Assembly: GCA_050013755.1 (NCBI GenBank)
Contig: JBEKER010000003.1
Coordinates: 14,404 to 78,403 of the forward strand
Length of the DNA stretch: 64,000 nt
DNA from: Halobacteriota archaeon
Lineage (GTDB): Archaea > Halobacteriota > Bog-38 > Methanoflorentales > Methanoflorentaceae
Reading direction: 5' to 3'
Below are positions 847-64,000 of this stretch, in pieces. Made by a program: the position numbers and the translations under genes. Under the pieces are notes generated by a model that did not search any database, was not told where the DNA came from, and saw only the letters and a list, made by a program, of their open reading frames with translations. How positions within the stretch are numbered: the first letter of the stretch is position 1; every line of letters starts with the position of its first letter.

Positions 847-1860
847 CTACAAACGATCGTCCTCTATCCACCCCTCTTCGAGAGTCTGCTCGCGATACGC
901 TATCTGAGGGAACGGACTTTGCGGTATGCTCATCTCTGATCGTTCGACTTCTTTTTGCGTGCGAAATACGTGCGTTAGGCCCTTTGATTCGATGATGCCT
1001 CGATCGAAGTTGCTGACTTTCACAAACTCCCTTTCAAGAACCATCTGAGGGTTGTACGGTTTGTCTACTTCGGTTATCTCGACGTACTGCTCCCAAAGGC
1101 CGACGATGAGTGACGCAAGCCGCTCGTCAGGTTCGATAACGTTCAAGCCCAGGCCATCCTTCGCCTCTTTCCTGCTGATGATATATCGGTGTGAAAATCG
1201 CTTGCTTGTCAGCATGCTCACGGCACGGTCGATCGTCTCATCATCGTCCATGTGCTGCTTGAGGAGGTGCGCCGCCAGAAAAGCGATCTGTTCTCGAGAC
1301 CTATACATGGCGCCGAGAACGAGCGGGTTGACGTTCGATGAAAGCGCGTCGAGGACTTTTTGCATTGACTCCTCGCCTCCGAGTCCGAGCTCGTTTTTTG
1401 CAAAGCTAAGAAAACCATCGACGTCCTCCACGTTGACGGGCACGTCTTGGACGAGTTGATTGGGGAGCGTTATCTTTGGGCTCAACGGGTGCTGCACGGA
1501 AGGATCGATGGGGCTCAGCTGACCCATCTCGCTCATAACGAGTTCATCTGCTCCCAATGCGATGAGCGTTGCTGTGCTATGCGCTTTGAACGGGATGATC
1601 ACGTTGAATCTACCGCAGAACTCCCGAAAAAGGTTGACGAGCGCATACCCGGCCATCGGCACCCCACTCGTGCCGTACAGAAACAGGTCAATTTGGTTTT
1701 GGTACCCCACTTTGGCCAGATGGCTATGAAGTATGGGAAAGACATCTGTGGCGATGTTGATCTCAAGCCCTTGCCGGTCCGCAGCAACATACGAGATAAC
1801 GGTAGAGCCCCGCGCTGCTTCGATTGCGCTAATGAGCTCCATTCGTTCTTCTTTCGTCAT
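847..1860 (-). CDS. SDH-family ClpP-fold serine protease
   Basis: PFKAHSTATLIALGADELVM...LSPIDP (catalytic Ser region) and downstream FSH (His). Confidence 0.75.
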   Translation of the reverse strand: MTKEERMELISAIEAARGSTVISYVAADRQGLEINIATDVFPILHSHLAKVGYQNQIDLFLYGTSGVPMAGYALVNLFREFCGRFNVIIPFKAHSTATLIALGADELVMSEMGQLSPIDPSVQHPLSPKITLPNQLVQDVPVNVEDVDGFLSFAKNELGLGGEESMQKVLDALSSNVNPLVLGAMYRSREQIAFLAAHLLKQHMDDDETIDRAVSMLTSKRFSHRYIISRKEAKDGLGLNVIEPDERLASLIVGLWEQYVEITEVDKPYNPQMVLEREFVKVSNFDRGIIESKGLTHVFRTQKEVERSEMSIPQSPFPQIAYREQTLEEGWIEDDRL

Positions 1861-2101
1861 GACATCACGCGGCGGAATACACCTGAGGTGAGAAGCGGTT
1901 GTATATAAATGCCACCCTGCGTCGTAAGGCGCTAGTGCGGGGGATTCGCTACGTTTTTTGACTTCTGTTTGCTAAGCGCTCGCACGCCAGCGACTTTAGC
2001 GCCACAAAAAAACATTGTTGGCCTCAACTTTAATACGATAGTCGCCATTGTGAGCATTGATCTTGGTGTAAGCATTCGCAGAACGCTGCTAAGCAGATTA
2101 G

Positions 2102-2515
2102 GTGAATACCGACAGAGTGAAAGTGACTATGAACGCGACGGGATACGTGGCCGAATGGACCTATCGCCCCAACAACGGGTGTAGAGCTGACCGATTCGGA
2201 CCGTGCATGCTGCAAGCGGAACTCGTGCGGTCATATTTCGACTCACACGGTCAGCAACGCGAAGACAGAGTCCAGCTCGGCGTCGTCAGTCTCGAATGCA
2301 TTACCGAAGTGTCGCACCGCCACGCGTTTTGGGTCATCACCGAAGCCGCACTCGAGTCGCTTGAACTGGACACCGAAACACGCGAACGCATCAGTGCGGA
2401 GTTATCGAAGGTCGTGCCATTGCCAAGCGAGGGCGAGATCACCGATTATAGAAACACGCTCGACGCACTCTCACGGGCGTTGCGAAAGAGACAGAGTTCG
2501 TCCACTGACAACTAA
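2102..2515 (+). CDS. Hypothetical protein (start uncertain)
   Basis: 137-aa ORF divergent from the protease; protein-like composition; no recognised motif. Confidence 0.55.
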   Translation: MNTDRVKVTMNATGYVAEWTYRPNNGCRADRFGPCMLQAELVRSYFDSHGQQREDRVQLGVVSLECITEVSHRHAFWVITEAALESLELDTETRERISAELSKVVPLPSEGEITDYRNTLDALSRALRKRQSSSTDN

Positions 2516-57274: not shown

Positions 57275-58192
57275 CTACGATGCTTGGCGAATAATTCCTG
57301 CAATCTGCTCTAGTGCATCGAAGGCGCGTGGCCCGGGACGGGATATGATGTCGCTGTCCAAGATGTAAATCTTACCGTTCTTGACGGCATCGACCGTAAC
57401 AAGAGCCGGGTCTGACTTGACCTGTTGAACTGCCGTTGAATTCATCGCACTGTTGGCGATAATCACCGAAGGGTTGAGAGCGACTATCGATTCCTTGCTC
57501 ATCGTCCCATACCCACTTACGTTTGCCAACTGCGCGACGTTTATGCCCCCGGCATGCGCGATGATATCCCCTTCAAAGGTGTTTGCGCCCGCCGACATTA
57601 TTGGGTCGTACCACACAAGATAGAGCACGCGCGGGTGTGAAGCAACAGAAATGCTGTTCGCAGTCATTTTTTGCGTCAAATTCGCAACAAGTGCGCTGCT
57701 ATTTCCCGTACTGCCCGTCACTTTGCCGATCATTGAGAGGTCGTTTAGTATCGCGGTTAAGCTGGTTGGGTTGAGGACGACCGTTGGTATCCCATAACCG
57801 CTAAGCGTCGAGAGCAAGGTATTGTTCTCCAGGGAACTTGCAAAGACGATATCAGGATTGAGGGAAACGATTTTTTCAATGCTCGGCGAGCTGAATCCGC
57901 CTACTTTTGTGATATTGACAGCCGCTGGCGGATAGTTGTCGTAGGTAGTGTCGCCAACCACCTTGCCGCCCAGTCCCAGGGCGAACAAGTCTTCCGTAAT
58001 GGAAGGAGCGAGTGAAATAATGCGATGAGGTGTTTGAGCGACGGTGACGGTTCTTCCGGCATCATCGGTAACCGTGATGCCGCCCGATTGAGTTGTTTGG
58101 TTTGACGACAGCTGCGCGCACCCCGCTCCCAGCGTCGCGAGGAGTATGGCGCAAATCACGACGCACGCTGCTTTTTTTGGTGTTATGTTCAT
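57275..58192 (-). CDS. btuF: Cobalamin-binding ABC substrate-binding lipoprotein
   Basis: Lipobox-like GAGC, TVTDDAGR.VT, RIISLAPS.TE.LFALG, GDT.YDNYP, E.I..LNPD, SRPGPR. Confidence 0.88.
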   Translation of the reverse strand: MNITPKKAACVVICAILLATLGAGCAQLSSNQTTQSGGITVTDDAGRTVTVAQTPHRIISLAPSITEDLFALGLGGKVVGDTTYDNYPPAAVNITKVGGFSSPSIEKIVSLNPDIVFASSLENNTLLSTLSGYGIPTVVLNPTSLTAILNDLSMIGKVTGSTGNSSALVANLTQKMTANSISVASHPRVLYLVWYDPIMSAGANTFEGDIIAHAGGINVAQLANVSGYGTMSKESIVALNPSVIIANSAMNSTAVQQVKSDPALVTVDAVKNGKIYILDSDIISRPGPRAFDALEQIAGIIRQAS

Positions 58193-58780
58193 GCTGCTAC
58201 CCCAAAAACGACAAGAACGAATCCTGAGGCGAATTCGAGTACACGGACGGCCACAGTGTCCCGCTGGGGCCCGAGCCGGTGATAGGCAGACGGAAGCGTC
58301 ACCCCCTCGTGAAATCGGCGCCCATTCATGCGAGCATGCATCGGGAGGAGATGATGGATCCGCGCGTAGCTTGATTTTGACATCAACCGCGTCAACCTCA
58401 CGAAGGGGGGGTACAACCGCCCGCCATACCGTTGTCGAAGCCGCCTCTAGATCCCATCGGTTAAGTGTGCCTTATCCTATATCAATTTATCTTGATAGTT
58501 ATCAGTTTTACTTGATAAACCAAACTTGATAAACCAAGAAGCAAGCGGCCATAAGCAGTGCTGTGCTTCCTCGCGGAGAAGCGCCAACGTTTGTTGTGTA
58601 GTTTGCGTACTCTTCCTTGCGTTCGTGCGACTAATACTTTCATCCTTCTTTTGGACAAAACATACAGTTCTCAATAAAGAGAGAGCACCCATCTCGCGTT
58701 TATCACGGTTGAGGGGACATCGTTCGAAGATACACGCGTCAATAATAACAAGGCAATACGCGCAATGGGGGCTCGAGGCG

Positions 58781-60574
58781 TTGTACACACGTATTAAACG
58801 TGCAGACTTAGGTGAAGAGCTGTCCCACCGAAGCGTTTCGCCGCCGTACGAGTATGTCGCCACCGAGGGGCATCTTACCACCATCATTGAGCGTATCGCA
58901 CCTTCGTCGATCGTGGCTATAGCGCTCGGAACTACGGGTCCCGACACCTTTGTTGATCGGATACGGACGCTCCAATTGGCCATACACGGCCATCCTCCGG
59001 CCATTATTGATTGTGCTCAGGTGCCGCAAGAGGGGTTGGCGAAGCTGCACGACCTCTTCTCGACACCGGCCGTCAAGGTAATGCACAACGGAAAGCTCGC
59101 CCTCAAGTTCCTCTATCAAGCCGGATTCGACCTCTCAAGCCCCTATTTCGACACGATGCTTGCCTCGCAACTGCTTAAAGGCGGGCTGGAGGCAAAACAC
59201 GATCTGAAAACCGTAGCGAGAGCATATCTTGACGAGCACACGCCGGAAACGTGCGGCAGTTTTCGAGCTGGTGTCCTCACCGAGCGGCAACTTCGATGTG
59301 CGGGGCAAACGGTCGGCGTGGTCTTGAGCCTCCATGCGGCGTTATCGGAGCGTATCGAGAGTGCAGGCCTCACTGACTGCATGCGCTTAGAATGCGCCTG
59401 CCTCCCCGCGGTTGCGGCAATGGAGCGCAACGGCATGCTCATGGACATGGGGCAGTGGCGAACGTTGCAGGACACCTATAACGAGTTGGAGGAGGACCTC
59501 GCGCACGAGGTGTGTCGTGAGCTGACGACGTCGGGACAGCGTACCCTCGGTGACGTCGCCGCCATCAATCTCGGCAGCCCCCAGCAGGTGAAGCACGCCT
59601 TCAGAAGCGCGGGCGTTCCCGTCCGCAACGTGCGAGAGGACGAGTTGCGTAAGTATGAGGAGCTCCATCCCGCGATACCCCGCTATATCCGCTACAAGCA
59701 CGTCTTAAAGCTCAAAAACGGCTTTTTGGATGCCCTCCCCCGGCACGTCCATCCGTTGACGGGGAGGATACACCCCACCTTTCTTCAGGTCGGCACGGTG
59801 AACGGGAGATTCGCGTGCCGCAATCCCAACCTGCAGCAGATTCCACGAGACGATGCGGTGAGGGGGTGCTTCGTTGCGGCACGTGATCACCGCCTCGTGA
59901 TCGCCGACTACGCGCAATTTGAGCTGCGGGTCGTTGCTGACATCAGCGGTGATGAGACCATGACGCGGGCGTTCCAACGAGGGGAGGACTTGCATCGGTT
60001 GACCGCGTCGCTCGTGCTCGACACGCCCCTTGACCAGGTGACGAAGGACGAGCGCCTTATCGCAAAGGTGCTGAACATCGGCCTCATCTACGGAATGGGC
60101 GCACGGAGCTTACGGCGATATGCGAATTACATCTATGGGGTGCACTTTACCCTCGAAGATGCGATCGAGTTTCGCCGGCGTTTCTTTAATGCGTACGCAG
60201 GCGTGCGGGCGTTCCACCGCAGCGTGAGCACCACACAGCTGATCTCAATCCGGACCTTGAGCGGAAGAATACGCAGGTGGGAGGATGGCCAAGACCCAAA
60301 GCTGACCGAACTGTTAAACACCCGAGTTCAGGGGACCGCTGCGGATATTATGAAACGGGCGGTGACCTCTCTCCACGAAGCATTAGGCCCTACGAGGGCA
60401 AAAATCGTCTGCTGTGTGCACGACGAGGTGCTGGTCGAAGCGCCACAGGTACGCGCTGCCGAGATCGCCGACACCGTCGCCTACCACATGCGAGGGGCGG
60501 GGGCTGAGTTTCTGCGAAATGTCCCGCTCGATGTCGACGTCGCGATTGATCGGAGCTGGGCGGGGAAGGGATAA
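58781..60574 (+). CDS. polA: Family A DNA polymerase (3'-5' exonuclease-like domain + polymerase, no 5' nuclease), proofreading residues substituted; start uncertain (TTG 58781 or CTG 58820)
   Basis: GR....PNLQQIP, motif A IADYAQFELRV, motif B RLIAKVLNIGLIYG, NTRVQGTAADIMK, motif C VHDEV. Confidence 0.92.
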   Translation: MYTRIKRADLGEELSHRSVSPPYEYVATEGHLTTIIERIAPSSIVAIALGTTGPDTFVDRIRTLQLAIHGHPPAIIDCAQVPQEGLAKLHDLFSTPAVKVMHNGKLALKFLYQAGFDLSSPYFDTMLASQLLKGGLEAKHDLKTVARAYLDEHTPETCGSFRAGVLTERQLRCAGQTVGVVLSLHAALSERIESAGLTDCMRLECACLPAVAAMERNGMLMDMGQWRTLQDTYNELEEDLAHEVCRELTTSGQRTLGDVAAINLGSPQQVKHAFRSAGVPVRNVREDELRKYEELHPAIPRYIRYKHVLKLKNGFLDALPRHVHPLTGRIHPTFLQVGTVNGRFACRNPNLQQIPRDDAVRGCFVAARDHRLVIADYAQFELRVVADISGDETMTRAFQRGEDLHRLTASLVLDTPLDQVTKDERLIAKVLNIGLIYGMGARSLRRYANYIYGVHFTLEDAIEFRRRFFNAYAGVRAFHRSVSTTQLISIRTLSGRIRRWEDGQDPKLTELLNTRVQGTAADIMKRAVTSLHEALGPTRAKIVCCVHDEVLVEAPQVRAAEIADTVAYHMRGAGAEFLRNVPLDVDVAIDRSWAGKG

Positions 60575-60643
60575 CGTGTCCGGCCGATGTCCGTTGTGCG
60601 TCACAGAGAGACTTCCGACGCACGATGGAGCATACCGTCGTCG

Positions 60644-60829
60644 CTAAGTGGCTTTTTTTGGCTGCTTATGAGGCGCGTAATCGTCGTCCCGCTTGAACTT
60701 CACTGGCTCAAACTGAGCACAACCCTCGGGACGGTACGATGGGTGACTGGCAAAGTGCCGCTTAGGCTCCATTTTTTCGGGCACGGGGCAGAGCCGATAG
60801 AAGTGCATACACGAAAGGCACAGCAACAT
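60644..60829 (-). CDS. Small Cys-rich hypothetical protein
   Basis: 61 aa: CLSCMHFYRLCP...HPSYRPEGCAQFEP; convergent with polA. Confidence 0.55.
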   Translation of the reverse strand: MLLCLSCMHFYRLCPVPEKMEPKRHFASHPSYRPEGCAQFEPVKFKRDDDYAPHKQPKKAT

Positions 60830-60980
60830 GGCGATCTGCTACCACCCATGTCGCGCGTTACGTTGAGCTTTTCGTAAGGAAGGTGAAACAAAGAGCTGAA
60901 ACGGGACCAGAGCAAACGCGGACGAGCTTCAACAAAAGCGTGAAGAACGCACAGCATCGGAACCCTTTCCCAGGTCTGGA

Positions 60981-61016
60981 GAAATATATACGTTAGCGGA
61001 AATATATACGTTAGCG
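60981..61016. repeat. 18-bp perfect tandem duplication GAAATATATACGTTAGCG x2 (TATA-containing)
   Basis: Read directly. Confidence 0.85.
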
Positions 61017-61119
61017 CTAGCCAAGGACAAAAAGCTCGGCCTCTCGCTGTTTACTGGCTTCGCCGCATTCCTCGTGGCGACGCTGTCGGTGCGGTTCTTC
61101 GTCGCTTCCAGTGATGTGA

Positions 61120-61149
61120 TGCACGGACGTGCACGGACGTGCACGGACA
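61120..61149. repeat. 10-bp tandem repeat TGCACGGAC(G/A) x3
   Basis: Read directly; junctions form the palindrome CGTGCACG. Confidence 0.85.
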
Positions 61150-61683
61150 GCGTCGCTCCCGTGTCGCCATCTTTAACCCCGCCGCATAAACTGCGTTCTG
61201 GTTGGTCGTTTGGGTGAACCGCCTGCTTCGGCGTAGCGACGCTTCAGCCATCCGCGCGGTTCTCGGAGCGCAGAACTCTGGCGCGATAGCACACAACGAT
61301 AGAGACGAAGAAGCGAAGTGATCACAGTTGGAGCGGAGCCTGGTCGCGTATAAACCGGAACCGCTCCGCATATTAGTTGAGGTCTTGTGGCTTAACCGTT
61401 TCGATGTTGGAGGCCGATAGGACGTATGCGGGTGCTAATGCGCGCGTGCCGATTTCGACGTGATCGTGTGAAATAGTAGCTTTGGTAAGAAACGGCCACA
61501 CTTTGCACGCGTGGCTTTTTTTAGGCATGCCGTGTACGTAGTTGAGAATCAGAGGTAAGCTGTTTCGCCAGCAGTTAGTTTACCAGCAGAACGTCCTTGT
61601 GCCTTATGCGACGTATTTAAGCGGAAACACTTAACTTTTAGCAGTCGCGTTTTACGTATTCCGTACTGAAAACGTGATAGCAG

Positions 61684-62118
61684 ATGCAGCGTGAGCGATC
61701 CTCATACGAACTGGAAACGATCGGAACTATTCAACACATCATAAACCGCATGGCCACTAATTCGATCATTATCAAAGGATGGACTGTGGCTGTGCTCGGT
61801 ATAATTCTGTTGCTGCGCGGCACGTGGTATCAAGCGCTTATTGCTGTCTTCGCTGTGCTCATTTTTTGGTATCTAGACGCTTATTTTCTGCGGCAAAAAA
61901 AGACGTATAAGGCACTATACAACGAGATCGTCGAAAATAGGCTCAACACAGGCGACGAGTTTTTTAATATGAGGACTGCTCGGTACGAGGCCGGCATAGA
62001 AGTACCGAGGCCAGGCAAATTAATGCTTTCGAAAACGTTGCTCATTTTTTATGGCTCTATTTTGACATTGACGTGTGCCTACGTCGGGATCTTGTCTGCC
62101 CTGTCATACGGAGCGTAG
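61684..62118 (+). CDS. Membrane protein resembling putative defence-associated TM effectors
   Basis: IQHIINRMATNS..IKGWTV, FWYLDAYFLRQ.K.Y.ALY; three hydrophobic segments. Confidence 0.7.
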   Translation: MQRERSSYELETIGTIQHIINRMATNSIIIKGWTVAVLGIILLLRGTWYQALIAVFAVLIFWYLDAYFLRQKKTYKALYNEIVENRLNTGDEFFNMRTARYEAGIEVPRPGKLMLSKTLLIFYGSILTLTCAYVGILSALSYGA

Positions 62119-62262
62119 CCCGGTAAGCTGTTCTTGAGGCCGTGTAAAATGGCAGAGGGTATAGTGGCAGTCGACCGAGGTTTTTAATCCGGTGAAACTA
62201 GCGTTGCGGAGAGCCTGTGAAATGTCTTTCGTAAAGCTCGACGTGTGACATCATCTGAGGTG

Positions 62263-62439
62263 TCACACCATAGTGCGGACGCTCGCGAAAACGTAAAGGG
62301 CGGCGCCTATGGTCAAAAGGACGTACCCGACTACCCTGAGTGGCGTAAACGCTAGTAATAGCCCAGCGACGACAACGACAAGGATAATCAGGGCCGTCTT
62401 CTGTGTTATAGTTCCCTTGACGTCAAGAGGGCTTGGCAT
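62263..62439 (-). CDS. 58-aa two-TM membrane protein (below ORF-track cutoff)
   Basis: MPSPLDVKGTITQKTALIILVVVVAGLLLAFTPLRVVGYVLLTIGAALYVFASVRTMV. Confidence 0.6.
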   Translation of the reverse strand: MPSPLDVKGTITQKTALIILVVVVAGLLLAFTPLRVVGYVLLTIGAALYVFASVRTMV

Positions 62440-62694
62440 GATAGGACTTCATAGCACTGAACTCCCCACAGTCTGAAAAAGCTTACGAAGATCGCCGCCG
62501 AGCAAAAAGCCGACGAAAGACGGTGAGGCTACTTGTGCGAAAGAAAAGGACTGAAAAACGCCGCCCGTGTAGCTTAACACAAACGATGTAGTGTCATCTC
62601 GAACGGTAAGGCGACAAGTTTGCTCAGAAAGCGAGCGTTACTTAAAAGAAGATGACGACCAGATTCGCTTATCGTTAAAAATCGGTGCGTCAAA

Positions 62695-63459
62695 ATGAAA
62701 TCACTCTGGAAAGGATCAATAGCGTTTGGACTGGTGAACATCCCAATAAAACTCTATTCGGCCGTCGAACAGAAGCCACTCAAAACACGGCTCTTGCACA
62801 AGGACAAGCTCTCGCCGATTCGGTACAAGAAATGGTGCGACGCGTGCACACAGGAGGTGTCCCAGGACGAGATCGTGAGGGGGATTGAGGTCTCCCCAGA
62901 CGAATATGTGGTCATTAGTGACGACGAGCTTCACTCTATCAGGCCTGAGAAATCCACGTGGATAGAAATCGTGGAGTTTGTTCATTCCCATCAAATCGAC
63001 CCGATTTATTTCAATGCGCATTACTACGCGGGCCCGGAACGGCCAAAGGACAAGACGTATTTCCTGTTCAGGGAAGTGCTCCAGCAGACCGCCAAGACCG
63101 CGATCGGCAGGTTTGTCATGCGGGAAAAGGAACACGTTTGCGCTATCGAGGCGTACAGGCAGGGGCTGCTGCTGACGACGCTGAATTATGATTATGAGAT
63201 ACGGGACATTATGCAGGTCGATGGGCTTGATGAGCCGCCGCAGCTCTCACAGGTCGAGATGGATCTCGCGCGACAGCTCATAGGCCAGATTACGGTCGAT
63301 GAGTTTGACATCACCAGATTTCACGATACCTTCGAGGAGGATCTCAAGGAGCTCGTCGAGAGAAAAGCACGCGGAGAAACGATTGCGATCCATAAGAGGG
63401 AATATCCCCGCACCACAGAAGAAAACCTTGTTGAAGCACTCAAGGCAAGCCTGAAATGA
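62695..63459 (+). CDS. ku: Prokaryotic Ku (non-homologous end joining)
   Basis: MKSLWKGSIAFGLVNIPIKLYSA, IRYK.WC, EIVRG.E, IEIVEFV, IDPIYF...YY..P, GRFVMREKE, LTTL.Y..EIR, NLVEALKASL. Confidence 0.97.
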   Translation: MKSLWKGSIAFGLVNIPIKLYSAVEQKPLKTRLLHKDKLSPIRYKKWCDACTQEVSQDEIVRGIEVSPDEYVVISDDELHSIRPEKSTWIEIVEFVHSHQIDPIYFNAHYYAGPERPKDKTYFLFREVLQQTAKTAIGRFVMREKEHVCAIEAYRQGLLLTTLNYDYEIRDIMQVDGLDEPPQLSQVEMDLARQLIGQITVDEFDITRFHDTFEEDLKELVERKARGETIAIHKREYPRTTEENLVEALKASLK

Positions 63460-64000
63460 TGCTCGCCGCCGCTGGCACAAAACAGATTCTTAAGTCCACC
63501 GAGTACATCTTTGAGCCTAAGCTGGACGGCTACAGGGCGCTCTGCGAAAAAAAGGCAGGAACGCTTCGCTTTACATCACGAAATAACCGGGATATCACCC
63601 GTGAGTTTCCCGAACTTGCGTTTGGCGACCTCATTAAGGCTGATTGCGTGCTCGATGGAGAGATCGTGATCTATGATGAAAAAGGGAACCCGTCGTTCTC
63701 GCTGCTGCAGGGACGGAAGCACCAGCGCCGGCCGCCCACGTACGTCGCGTTTGACGTGCTCGAACTGGAAGGCAGGAACCTAACAACGCTGCCGCTGTCA
63801 GCGAGAAAACGGCTGCTTTCGGAGGTCGTCGAGGAGGGGAGAAACCTGCAGACAATGCCCGGCACGGATGACGGTGAGCGACTCTGGGACGTGGTAACGG
63901 CACGCCATCTGGAAGGGGTGATGGCAAAGAAAAAGGAAAGCGTCTATGTTACCGGACGGTCGCACGCCTGGCTGAAAATTAAGGATGAGAAAACCGTCGA
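63456..64000 (+). CDS. ligD: ATP-dependent DNA ligase, LigD/LigC-type ligase domain (3' truncated by window edge; not in ORF track)
   Basis: ATGA overlap with the ku stop; motif I EPKLDGYR, SRN, III LDGE, IIIa AFD, IV EGVMAK, V WLKIK. Confidence 0.93.
   Translation, partial: MMLAAAGTKQILKSTEYIFEPKLDGYRALCEKKAGTLRFTSRNNRDITREFPELAFGDLIKADCVLDGEIVIYDEKGNPSFSLLQGRKHQRRPPTYVAFDVLELEGRNLTTLPLSARKRLLSEVVEEGRNLQTMPGTDDGERLWDVVTARHLEGVMAKKKESVYVTGRSHAWLKIKDEKTV

Follow-up and report, generated by a model that had tools for sequence, protein, structure and literature searches.

A non-proofreading family A DNA polymerase retained in a methanogen family probably lies beside, rather than within, a canonical Ku-ligase operon

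Background

Can a family A DNA polymerase that has lost its proofreading site serve as the polymerase of a prokaryotic end-joining system? The question is raised by a 64,000-nucleotide stretch of DNA, hereafter the window, from a Halobacteriota archaeon of the family Methanoflorentaceae (assembly GCA_050013755.1, contig JBEKER010000003.1, C3:14404-78403). Near its right-hand end a polA gene (58781..60574, + strand) stands upstream of ku and of a ligase gene that runs past the window's edge. An original prediction, made from the letters alone, saw in these three genes, two of them a Ku/ligase pair for non-homologous end joining (NHEJ), a candidate new end-joining module. We consider a different account probable: PolA would be a once-acquired and since domesticated non-proofreading polymerase that has no connection, as far as operon structure goes, with the canonical NHEJ operon next to it.

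The window comes from a metagenome-assembled genome (MAG) of 1.41 Mb in 55 contigs, 67% complete, and we read the same contig beyond the window's end (locus L001). Presence and absence of genes were surveyed across 61 related genomes. The window's family (f1) is represented by 24 genomes, 18 of them from its own genus (g1, including the window's genome, G000) and six from the sister genus (g2).

Results and discussion

Identity and motifs of PolA

The polA frame is open without interruption from 58526 to 60574 on the + strand and contains no in-frame ATG. The gene likely starts at the TTG at 58781, giving a Klenow-like protein of 597 amino acids (aa); this start is uncertain, as the open frame leaves room for an alternative further upstream, and a start at the site of the orthologues' Met would give 584 aa. 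Pfam recognizes a polymerase domain (DNA_pol_A, PF00476, 4.2e-77) and an exonuclease-like domain (DNA_pol_A_exo1, PF01612, 2.4e-11), and a 5' nuclease is absent. The top NCBIfam model is NF011539, the ‘bifunctional 3'-5' exonuclease/DNA polymerase’ of the PRK14975 group, matched at 546 bits against a cut-off of 640. Among solved structures, the nearest by sequence is apPOL, the Plasmodium apicoplast polymerase (1.6e-79), followed by Aquifex Pol I and Klenow, which places the protein in the Aquificae/apicoplast-like subfamily.

We aligned the window PolA with 15 archaeal and eight bacterial homologues (alignment A1) and compared apicoplast apPOL besides. At the ExoI DxE position the window reads A48-L-G50 (codons 58922 and 58928), at the ExoII aspartate A107 (59099), and at ExoIII YxxxD C173-A-G-Q-T177 (59297-59311), where the tyrosine is replaced too. 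All eight bacterial homologues retain DxETTG, N-x-K-F-D and Y-A-A-x-D (YAARD). The polymerase motifs of the window protein are unbroken (motif A, IADYAQFELR; motif B, RLIAKVLNIGLIYG; VQGTAADI; motif C, VHDE), and DYAQFELR, RxxAKxxNIGxxYG and HDE are invariant across the archaeal clade in A1. At the exonuclease positions the alignment agrees, codon for codon, with what had been read from the sequence beforehand, and the intact polymerase motifs are confirmed as well. Compared with the PRK14975 / cd08639 enzymes, the window PolA shows motifs A, B and C of their polymerase domain as well as their N-terminal 3'-5' exonuclease fold without a 5' nuclease; it lacks the catalytic DxE, D and YxxxD that a bifunctional member carries.

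An AlphaFold (AF2) model built from A1 reached a pLDDT of 89.5 and a pTM of 0.87, with residues 1-19 as the sole part predicted to be disordered. The vestigial 3'-5' exonuclease-like domain (about residues 22-215; 58844..59425, + strand) was modeled at a pLDDT of 91-97. The best fold matches were apPOL (TM 0.90) and Aquifex Pol I (TM 0.83), and Klenow was matched as well. Judged from alignment and model, the exonuclease site is predicted to be catalytically dead within a fold that has been kept, the polymerase active site appears intact, and the polymerase looks active.

PolAs with a dead exonuclease are common. Taq polymerase and the Bst large fragment are Pol I enzymes with a vestigial exonuclease domain that do not proofread and act in repair and gap filling. 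They share with the window PolA an exonuclease-like fold whose catalytic carboxylates are gone; they differ in having an N-terminal 5' nuclease of their own and in belonging to the canonical Pol I subfamily, whereas the window PolA is archaeal and has no 5' nuclease.

The window's own subfamily, ‘Hot Spring 1’ (cd08639), has already been reported in Methanomicrobia in a non-prophage context (Czernecki et al. 2023, PMC10201439); about 93% of its members are exonuclease-proficient, its role in prokaryotes is given as unknown, and apPOL is described as part of the primase-helicase-polymerase protein PREX (PMC10201439). The Aquificae-like PolAs (cd08639, PRK14975; Aquifex Pol I, PDB 8jrb; apPOL/PREX, 5dku, 7sxq and 9qsc) resemble the window protein in joining an exonuclease to a polymerase domain without a 5' nuclease, and subfamily and window clade alike are associated with primase or helicase genes. 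Unlike them, the window PolA lacks the exonuclease carboxylates, scores below the NF011539 cut-off, belongs to a clade on a long stem branch and carries motif changes of its own. These changes, invariant in its clade, turn TGR into NGR, DYSQIELR into DYAQFELR and NFG into NIG, with isoleucine at the Phe762 equivalent (window 60031-60100 and ~59790-59816); the bacterial homologues and another archaeal homologue retain the canonical residues at these positions.

Distribution of polA and selection on it

Homologues of the window PolA form two groups: proteins from archaeal MAGs, at 95% down to 57% identity, and bacterial ‘bifunctional exonuclease/polymerase’ proteins at 45% or less. The archaeal proteins are monophyletic (100/100), and the stem leading to them is long, at 1.09 changes per column. 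Twenty of the 24 genomes of the family carry polA (15/18 in the window's genus and 5/6 in the sister genus), and the three genomes of the window's genus without it are only 59-61% complete. No other family of the phylum had it in the 61-genome survey, except for an unrelated homologue of 33% identity in G044 (Methanolobus-type), which retains DxE and YxxxD. Within the archaeal clade, the ExoI, ExoII and ExoIII aspartates are missing in 16/16 members of A1, and the ExoI glutamate is kept by some. Because the aspartates are missing in every member, the exonuclease appears to have been dead already in the ancestor of the family, and its inactivation would be ancestral to the whole clade.

Pairwise Nei-Gojobori estimates, calculated per domain over a dS range from 0.1 to >1, gave a dN/dS of 0.07-0.15 for the polymerase domain and 0.14-0.32 for the exonuclease-like domain. 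The original prediction had named a polymerase-domain ratio near 1 as evidence against itself, and the values lie far from it. They indicate that polA is kept by purifying selection as a functional gene, with the exonuclease-like domain as a constrained structural module. Nearly all genomes of both genera have an intact copy; damaged copies among the relatives are those of G002, with an in-frame TGA, and of G022, with a 1-nt insertion.

These results bear on whether polA could be a decaying relic of a mobile element without cellular function. Such a relic would sit well with a foreign origin of bacterial or viral type, with the dead exonuclease and the non-ATG start, and with the in-frame stop and the frameshift just mentioned. 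Against it stand a polymerase-domain dN/dS of about 0.1 at divergences up to dS >1, catalytic motifs that do not vary and the intact state of the gene throughout two genera. The neighbours of polA are moreover housekeeping genes, and mobile-element genes were not seen nearby. We regard decay as scarcely credible.

The Ku-ligase operon

The ku gene (62695..63459, + strand; TIGR02772, 268 bits, cut-off 150) is the first gene of an archaeo-prokaryotic NHEJ (AP-NHEJ) operon. The next gene encodes a stand-alone LigD-type ATP-dependent ligase of 291 aa (63456..64000 and on to ~64331 past the window, + strand; TIGR02779, 251.5 bits, cut-off 227.75). Its start overlaps ku by 4 nt and it begins at the adenylation domain; the coupled pair was correctly recognized in advance. 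What follows lies outside the window, where the ligase ends about 330 nt past the edge and shares its last 8 nt with a gene of 446 aa (about 64324-65664 in window numbering, L001 6728..8068, + strand). This gene encodes a 3'-phosphoesterase (PE; LigD_N, PF13298, 3.8e-41; TIGR02777, 191.6 bits, cut-off 144) fused to a primase-polymerase (LigD_Prim-Pol, PF21686, 1.5e-67; TIGR02778, 204.5 bits, slightly below the cut-off of 214.7). The locus has all that defines an AP-NHEJ operon, namely co-oriented Ku, ligase, phosphoesterase and archaeo-eukaryotic primase (AEP)-type primase-polymerase.

Since phosphoesterase and PrimPol are found in a gene that overlaps lig, the NHEJ operon is complete by its gene content: ku and lig appear to be the front of a canonical archaeo-prokaryotic operon of the order Ku, Lig, PE::PrimPol, which is predicted to bring its own polymerase and its own end-healing nuclease. 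A LigD-Pol directly after the ligase had been named beforehand as the find that would speak against a new PolA-Ku-Lig module, and it is what the contig holds. The same Ku-Lig-PE::PrimPol arrangement occurs in L002, G003 and G011, and elsewhere in the phylum there are families with Ku but no PolA.

Work on Methanocella paludicola and Mycobacterium has characterised the component set Ku, Lig, Pol and PE (PMC4797286). The window's operon shares this set, here arranged as one overlapping operon; it differs in that PE and Pol are fused into the 446-aa protein and the ligase stands alone. PolA lies outside it.

Two side observations concern the operon. In some genomes of the window's genus, a gene for a SAM-dependent methyltransferase stops 18-24 nt 5' of ku (L002 10271..11284; L026 4601..5359) and may be the first gene of the NHEJ operon in them; in the window's polA-ku spacer neither this gene nor a pseudogene remnant of it left a trace. 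G018 (C1:1622173-1622511) encodes a LigD-PE-like paralogue that stands alone, measures about 150 aa and is 45-47% identical to the operon PE; it has equivalents in G013, G016, G022 and G023 and occurs even in members of the family without Ku.

Linkage of polA and ku

In the window, 2120 nt separate the polA stop from the ku start. The first gene in this spacer is convergent with polA and encodes a small Cys-containing protein of 61 aa (60644..60829, - strand; 51-61 aa in relatives; MLLCLSCxHFYxLCPVPEKMEP...GC), for which no Pfam family was matched. A pattern search found it in 11/12 loci compared within the genus (L019 being the one miss), and it accounts for a conserved block about 100-300 nt past the polA stop, flanked by intergenic DNA that can hardly be aligned. 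Within the 3' end of this gene, about 75 nt past the polA stop, lies the T-run GGCTTTTTTTTGG (T8; 60649..60658, + strand), a sequence resembling archaeal terminators that may act as one. The remaining cargo varies from genome to genome. It is a SAM methyltransferase in L002 and G003; in G011 it comprises a peroxiredoxin-DUF346 protein, an HtrA-like protease and one unknown gene. In the window it consists of just small ORFs and a predicted membrane protein of 144 aa and no known family (61684..62118, + strand), which shares 81% identity with an ORF of 146 aa in the G011 spacer. Because a conserved convergent gene, a T-run and hypervariable cargo lie between them, polA and ku are, as far as the sequence can tell, not one operon and not one transcription unit.

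Outside the window's genus the linkage is not seen. On the closed chromosome of G018, from the sister genus, the two genes are 1.35 Mb apart (polA, 1.163 Mb; ku, 2.519 Mb). In a subclade at 71% identity (L003, L004, L008 and L009), no ku was found within 8-10 kb of polA, which there lies between cbiM and the GSDH/TrmB genes, and the coupled partner of polA in L005 and L007 is a DnaB-like gene rather than ku. The absence of linkage elsewhere had likewise been set in advance as speaking against the module. PolA is thus found neither in the NHEJ transcription unit nor in a linkage conserved across lineages, given the convergent gene, the T-run, the variable spacer and the unlinked state elsewhere. 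Since polA-ku adjacency is limited to one genus, co-location without functional coupling, which the original prediction had stated as its alternative, is a better reading than a functional module.

Several observations pull the other way and weigh against our account. In all 11 genomes of the window's genus that have both genes on one contig, polA lies 5' of ku on the same strand (spacers 1.4-8.2 kb), and a functional association maintained at genus level is possible. The closed sister-genus genome G022 (2.7 Mb) lacks Ku and PE::PrimPol, and its polA (L027 9818..11729) is split by the 1-nt insertion, which is not in a homopolymer, in the exonuclease-like domain; this single case is a weak hint of co-loss, or else an assembly error. 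Finally, isoleucine at the Phe762 equivalent together with NGR could mean an altered rather than a standard polymerase chemistry.

The first two of these observations, together with a dead exonuclease beside a conserved polymerase, are what favours PolA as the functional partner of Ku and Lig, extending ends or filling gaps much as Pol theta does, in a new end-joining module at least in the window's genus. If true, this would add a novel form of end joining to those of prokaryotes; the evidence speaks against it, and we think it quite improbable. The PE and PrimPol functions are already encoded in the gene that overlaps lig, a conserved convergent gene and a T-run set polA apart from ku, and the variable spacer cargo is not concerned with DNA repair. 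Neither the sister genus nor the 71%-identity subclade shows the linkage, other families have Ku but no PolA, and the exonuclease site was dead before the adjacency arose.

Nor does PolA itself look like Pol theta. Eukaryotic Pol theta is a family A enzyme with an inactive exonuclease-like domain that acts in end joining. The two have in common a dead exonuclease-like domain and, in the window's clade, a helicase-like gene that ancestrally adjoined polA. Unlike Pol theta, the window PolA has neither a fused SF2 helicase-like domain nor insertion loops in its polymerase domain, as A1 and the fold matches agree; it is a compact protein of 597 aa from another PolA subfamily, and no Pol theta structure was among the top fold matches of its model. 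What had been proposed as one claim therefore divides: a non-proofreading polymerase under selection is borne out by a dN/dS of about 0.1 and by the ancestral loss of the exonuclease, and its end-joining partnership with Ku and Lig is not.

A variant restricted to the window's genus would have PolA recruited secondarily beside the NHEJ operon, as a second, processive fill-in polymerase for double-strand break repair, with the adjacency selected and not a product of inertia. Such a recruitment would be a prokaryotic analogue of Pol-theta-type end joining, and we give it little chance.

A DnaB-like former partner

In the sister genus, the gene preceding polA is DnaB_C-like, and its end overlaps the polA start by 4-17 nt (L005, L007 and L024). 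It encodes a protein of 650-685 aa (670-685 in the sister genus; L005 7978..10017; L007 7947..10004; L024 6137..8152; in the window's genome L023 9358..11337, G000 C4:85357-87333), whose N-terminal Cys/Trp-rich region of about 330 aa matched no Pfam family. The gene is single-copy, confined to the family and under purifying selection (dN/dS 0.2-0.4). In every copy the GK of its Walker A motif is replaced, with ‘ACT’ standing for GKT in the sister genus and, in the window's genus, ‘E-AT’ or the like, and the protein is probably not an ATPase or a working helicase.

PolA might still be paired with this pseudo-ATPase, as a domesticated helicase-polymerase for, e.g., replication restart or the replication of an extrachromosomal element. 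The translational coupling in the sister genus speaks for such a pairing, as do the shared confinement of both genes to the family, the single-copy state of the DnaB-like gene and the purifying selection on it; bacterial relatives of the PolA subfamily, too, are frequently fused to primase or zinc-ribbon domains (see also PMC10201439). The Walker A lysine, in contrast, is missing in every copy, and in the window's genus the two genes are distant: the DnaB-like gene lies about 270 kb from polA in G011 and on another contig, beside metG, in G000. It also evolves much faster than polA (47-95% against 86-97% identity within the genus), is broken by stop codons or fragmented in G003, G005 and G009, and was not detected in G010, where polA is present. 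We consider a pairing that still operates unlikely.

Acquisition and role of PolA

The account we favour, a domesticated polymerase independent of the NHEJ operon, can be put as a sequence of steps. The ancestor of the family would have acquired polA once, most likely with a mobile element that carried it in a helicase-polymerase replication module. The proofreading site and the ATPase site of the helicase would both have been lost early, after which polA would have been inherited vertically under strong purifying selection and domesticated. A rearrangement in the window's genus only would then have brought it near ku. The enzyme may act as a stand-alone, Pol I-like polymerase for repair or gap filling, without proofreading, in a lineage whose other polymerases include PolD and a split proofreading PolB but none of the Y family; this function we infer.

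A PolB whose exonuclease and polymerase motifs are both intact is present in all genomes of the family, which rules out PolA as a replacement for it. Past motif C (YGDTDS) the family's PolB is divided between two genes, of about 590 and 225 aa (L120 2238..4016 and 1448..2125, - strand, on G000 C7; L121 has the identical layout), an arrangement resembling the split PolB described in Methanothermobacter. No Y-family polymerase (PF00817) was detected in any of the 24 genomes of the family, four of which are single-contig; this absence is not decisive, as many families of the phylum without PolA lack one too.

What is new here is an exonuclease-deficient archaeal branch of the sole PolA subfamily known in all three domains. 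A methanogen family seems to have long retained, under selection, a family A polymerase of bacterial or viral type whose proofreading was already dead, and it also keeps the Walker-A-less DnaB-like protein that was polA's ancestral operon partner. The window PolA offers a tractable way to learn which task falls to a Pol I-like enzyme when an archaeon already has PolD and PolB.

Other features of the locus

No structured RNA was matched in window 58000-64000 (Rfam, E <= 0.1). A hydrophobic small ORF of 58 aa lies in the polA-ku spacer (62263..62439, - strand); its coding status is uncertain, and its DNA is 84% conserved with G011. The same spacer contains the tandem repeats GAAATATATACGTTAGCG, in two copies, and TGCACGGACG, in three, at 60981-61016 and 61120-61149.

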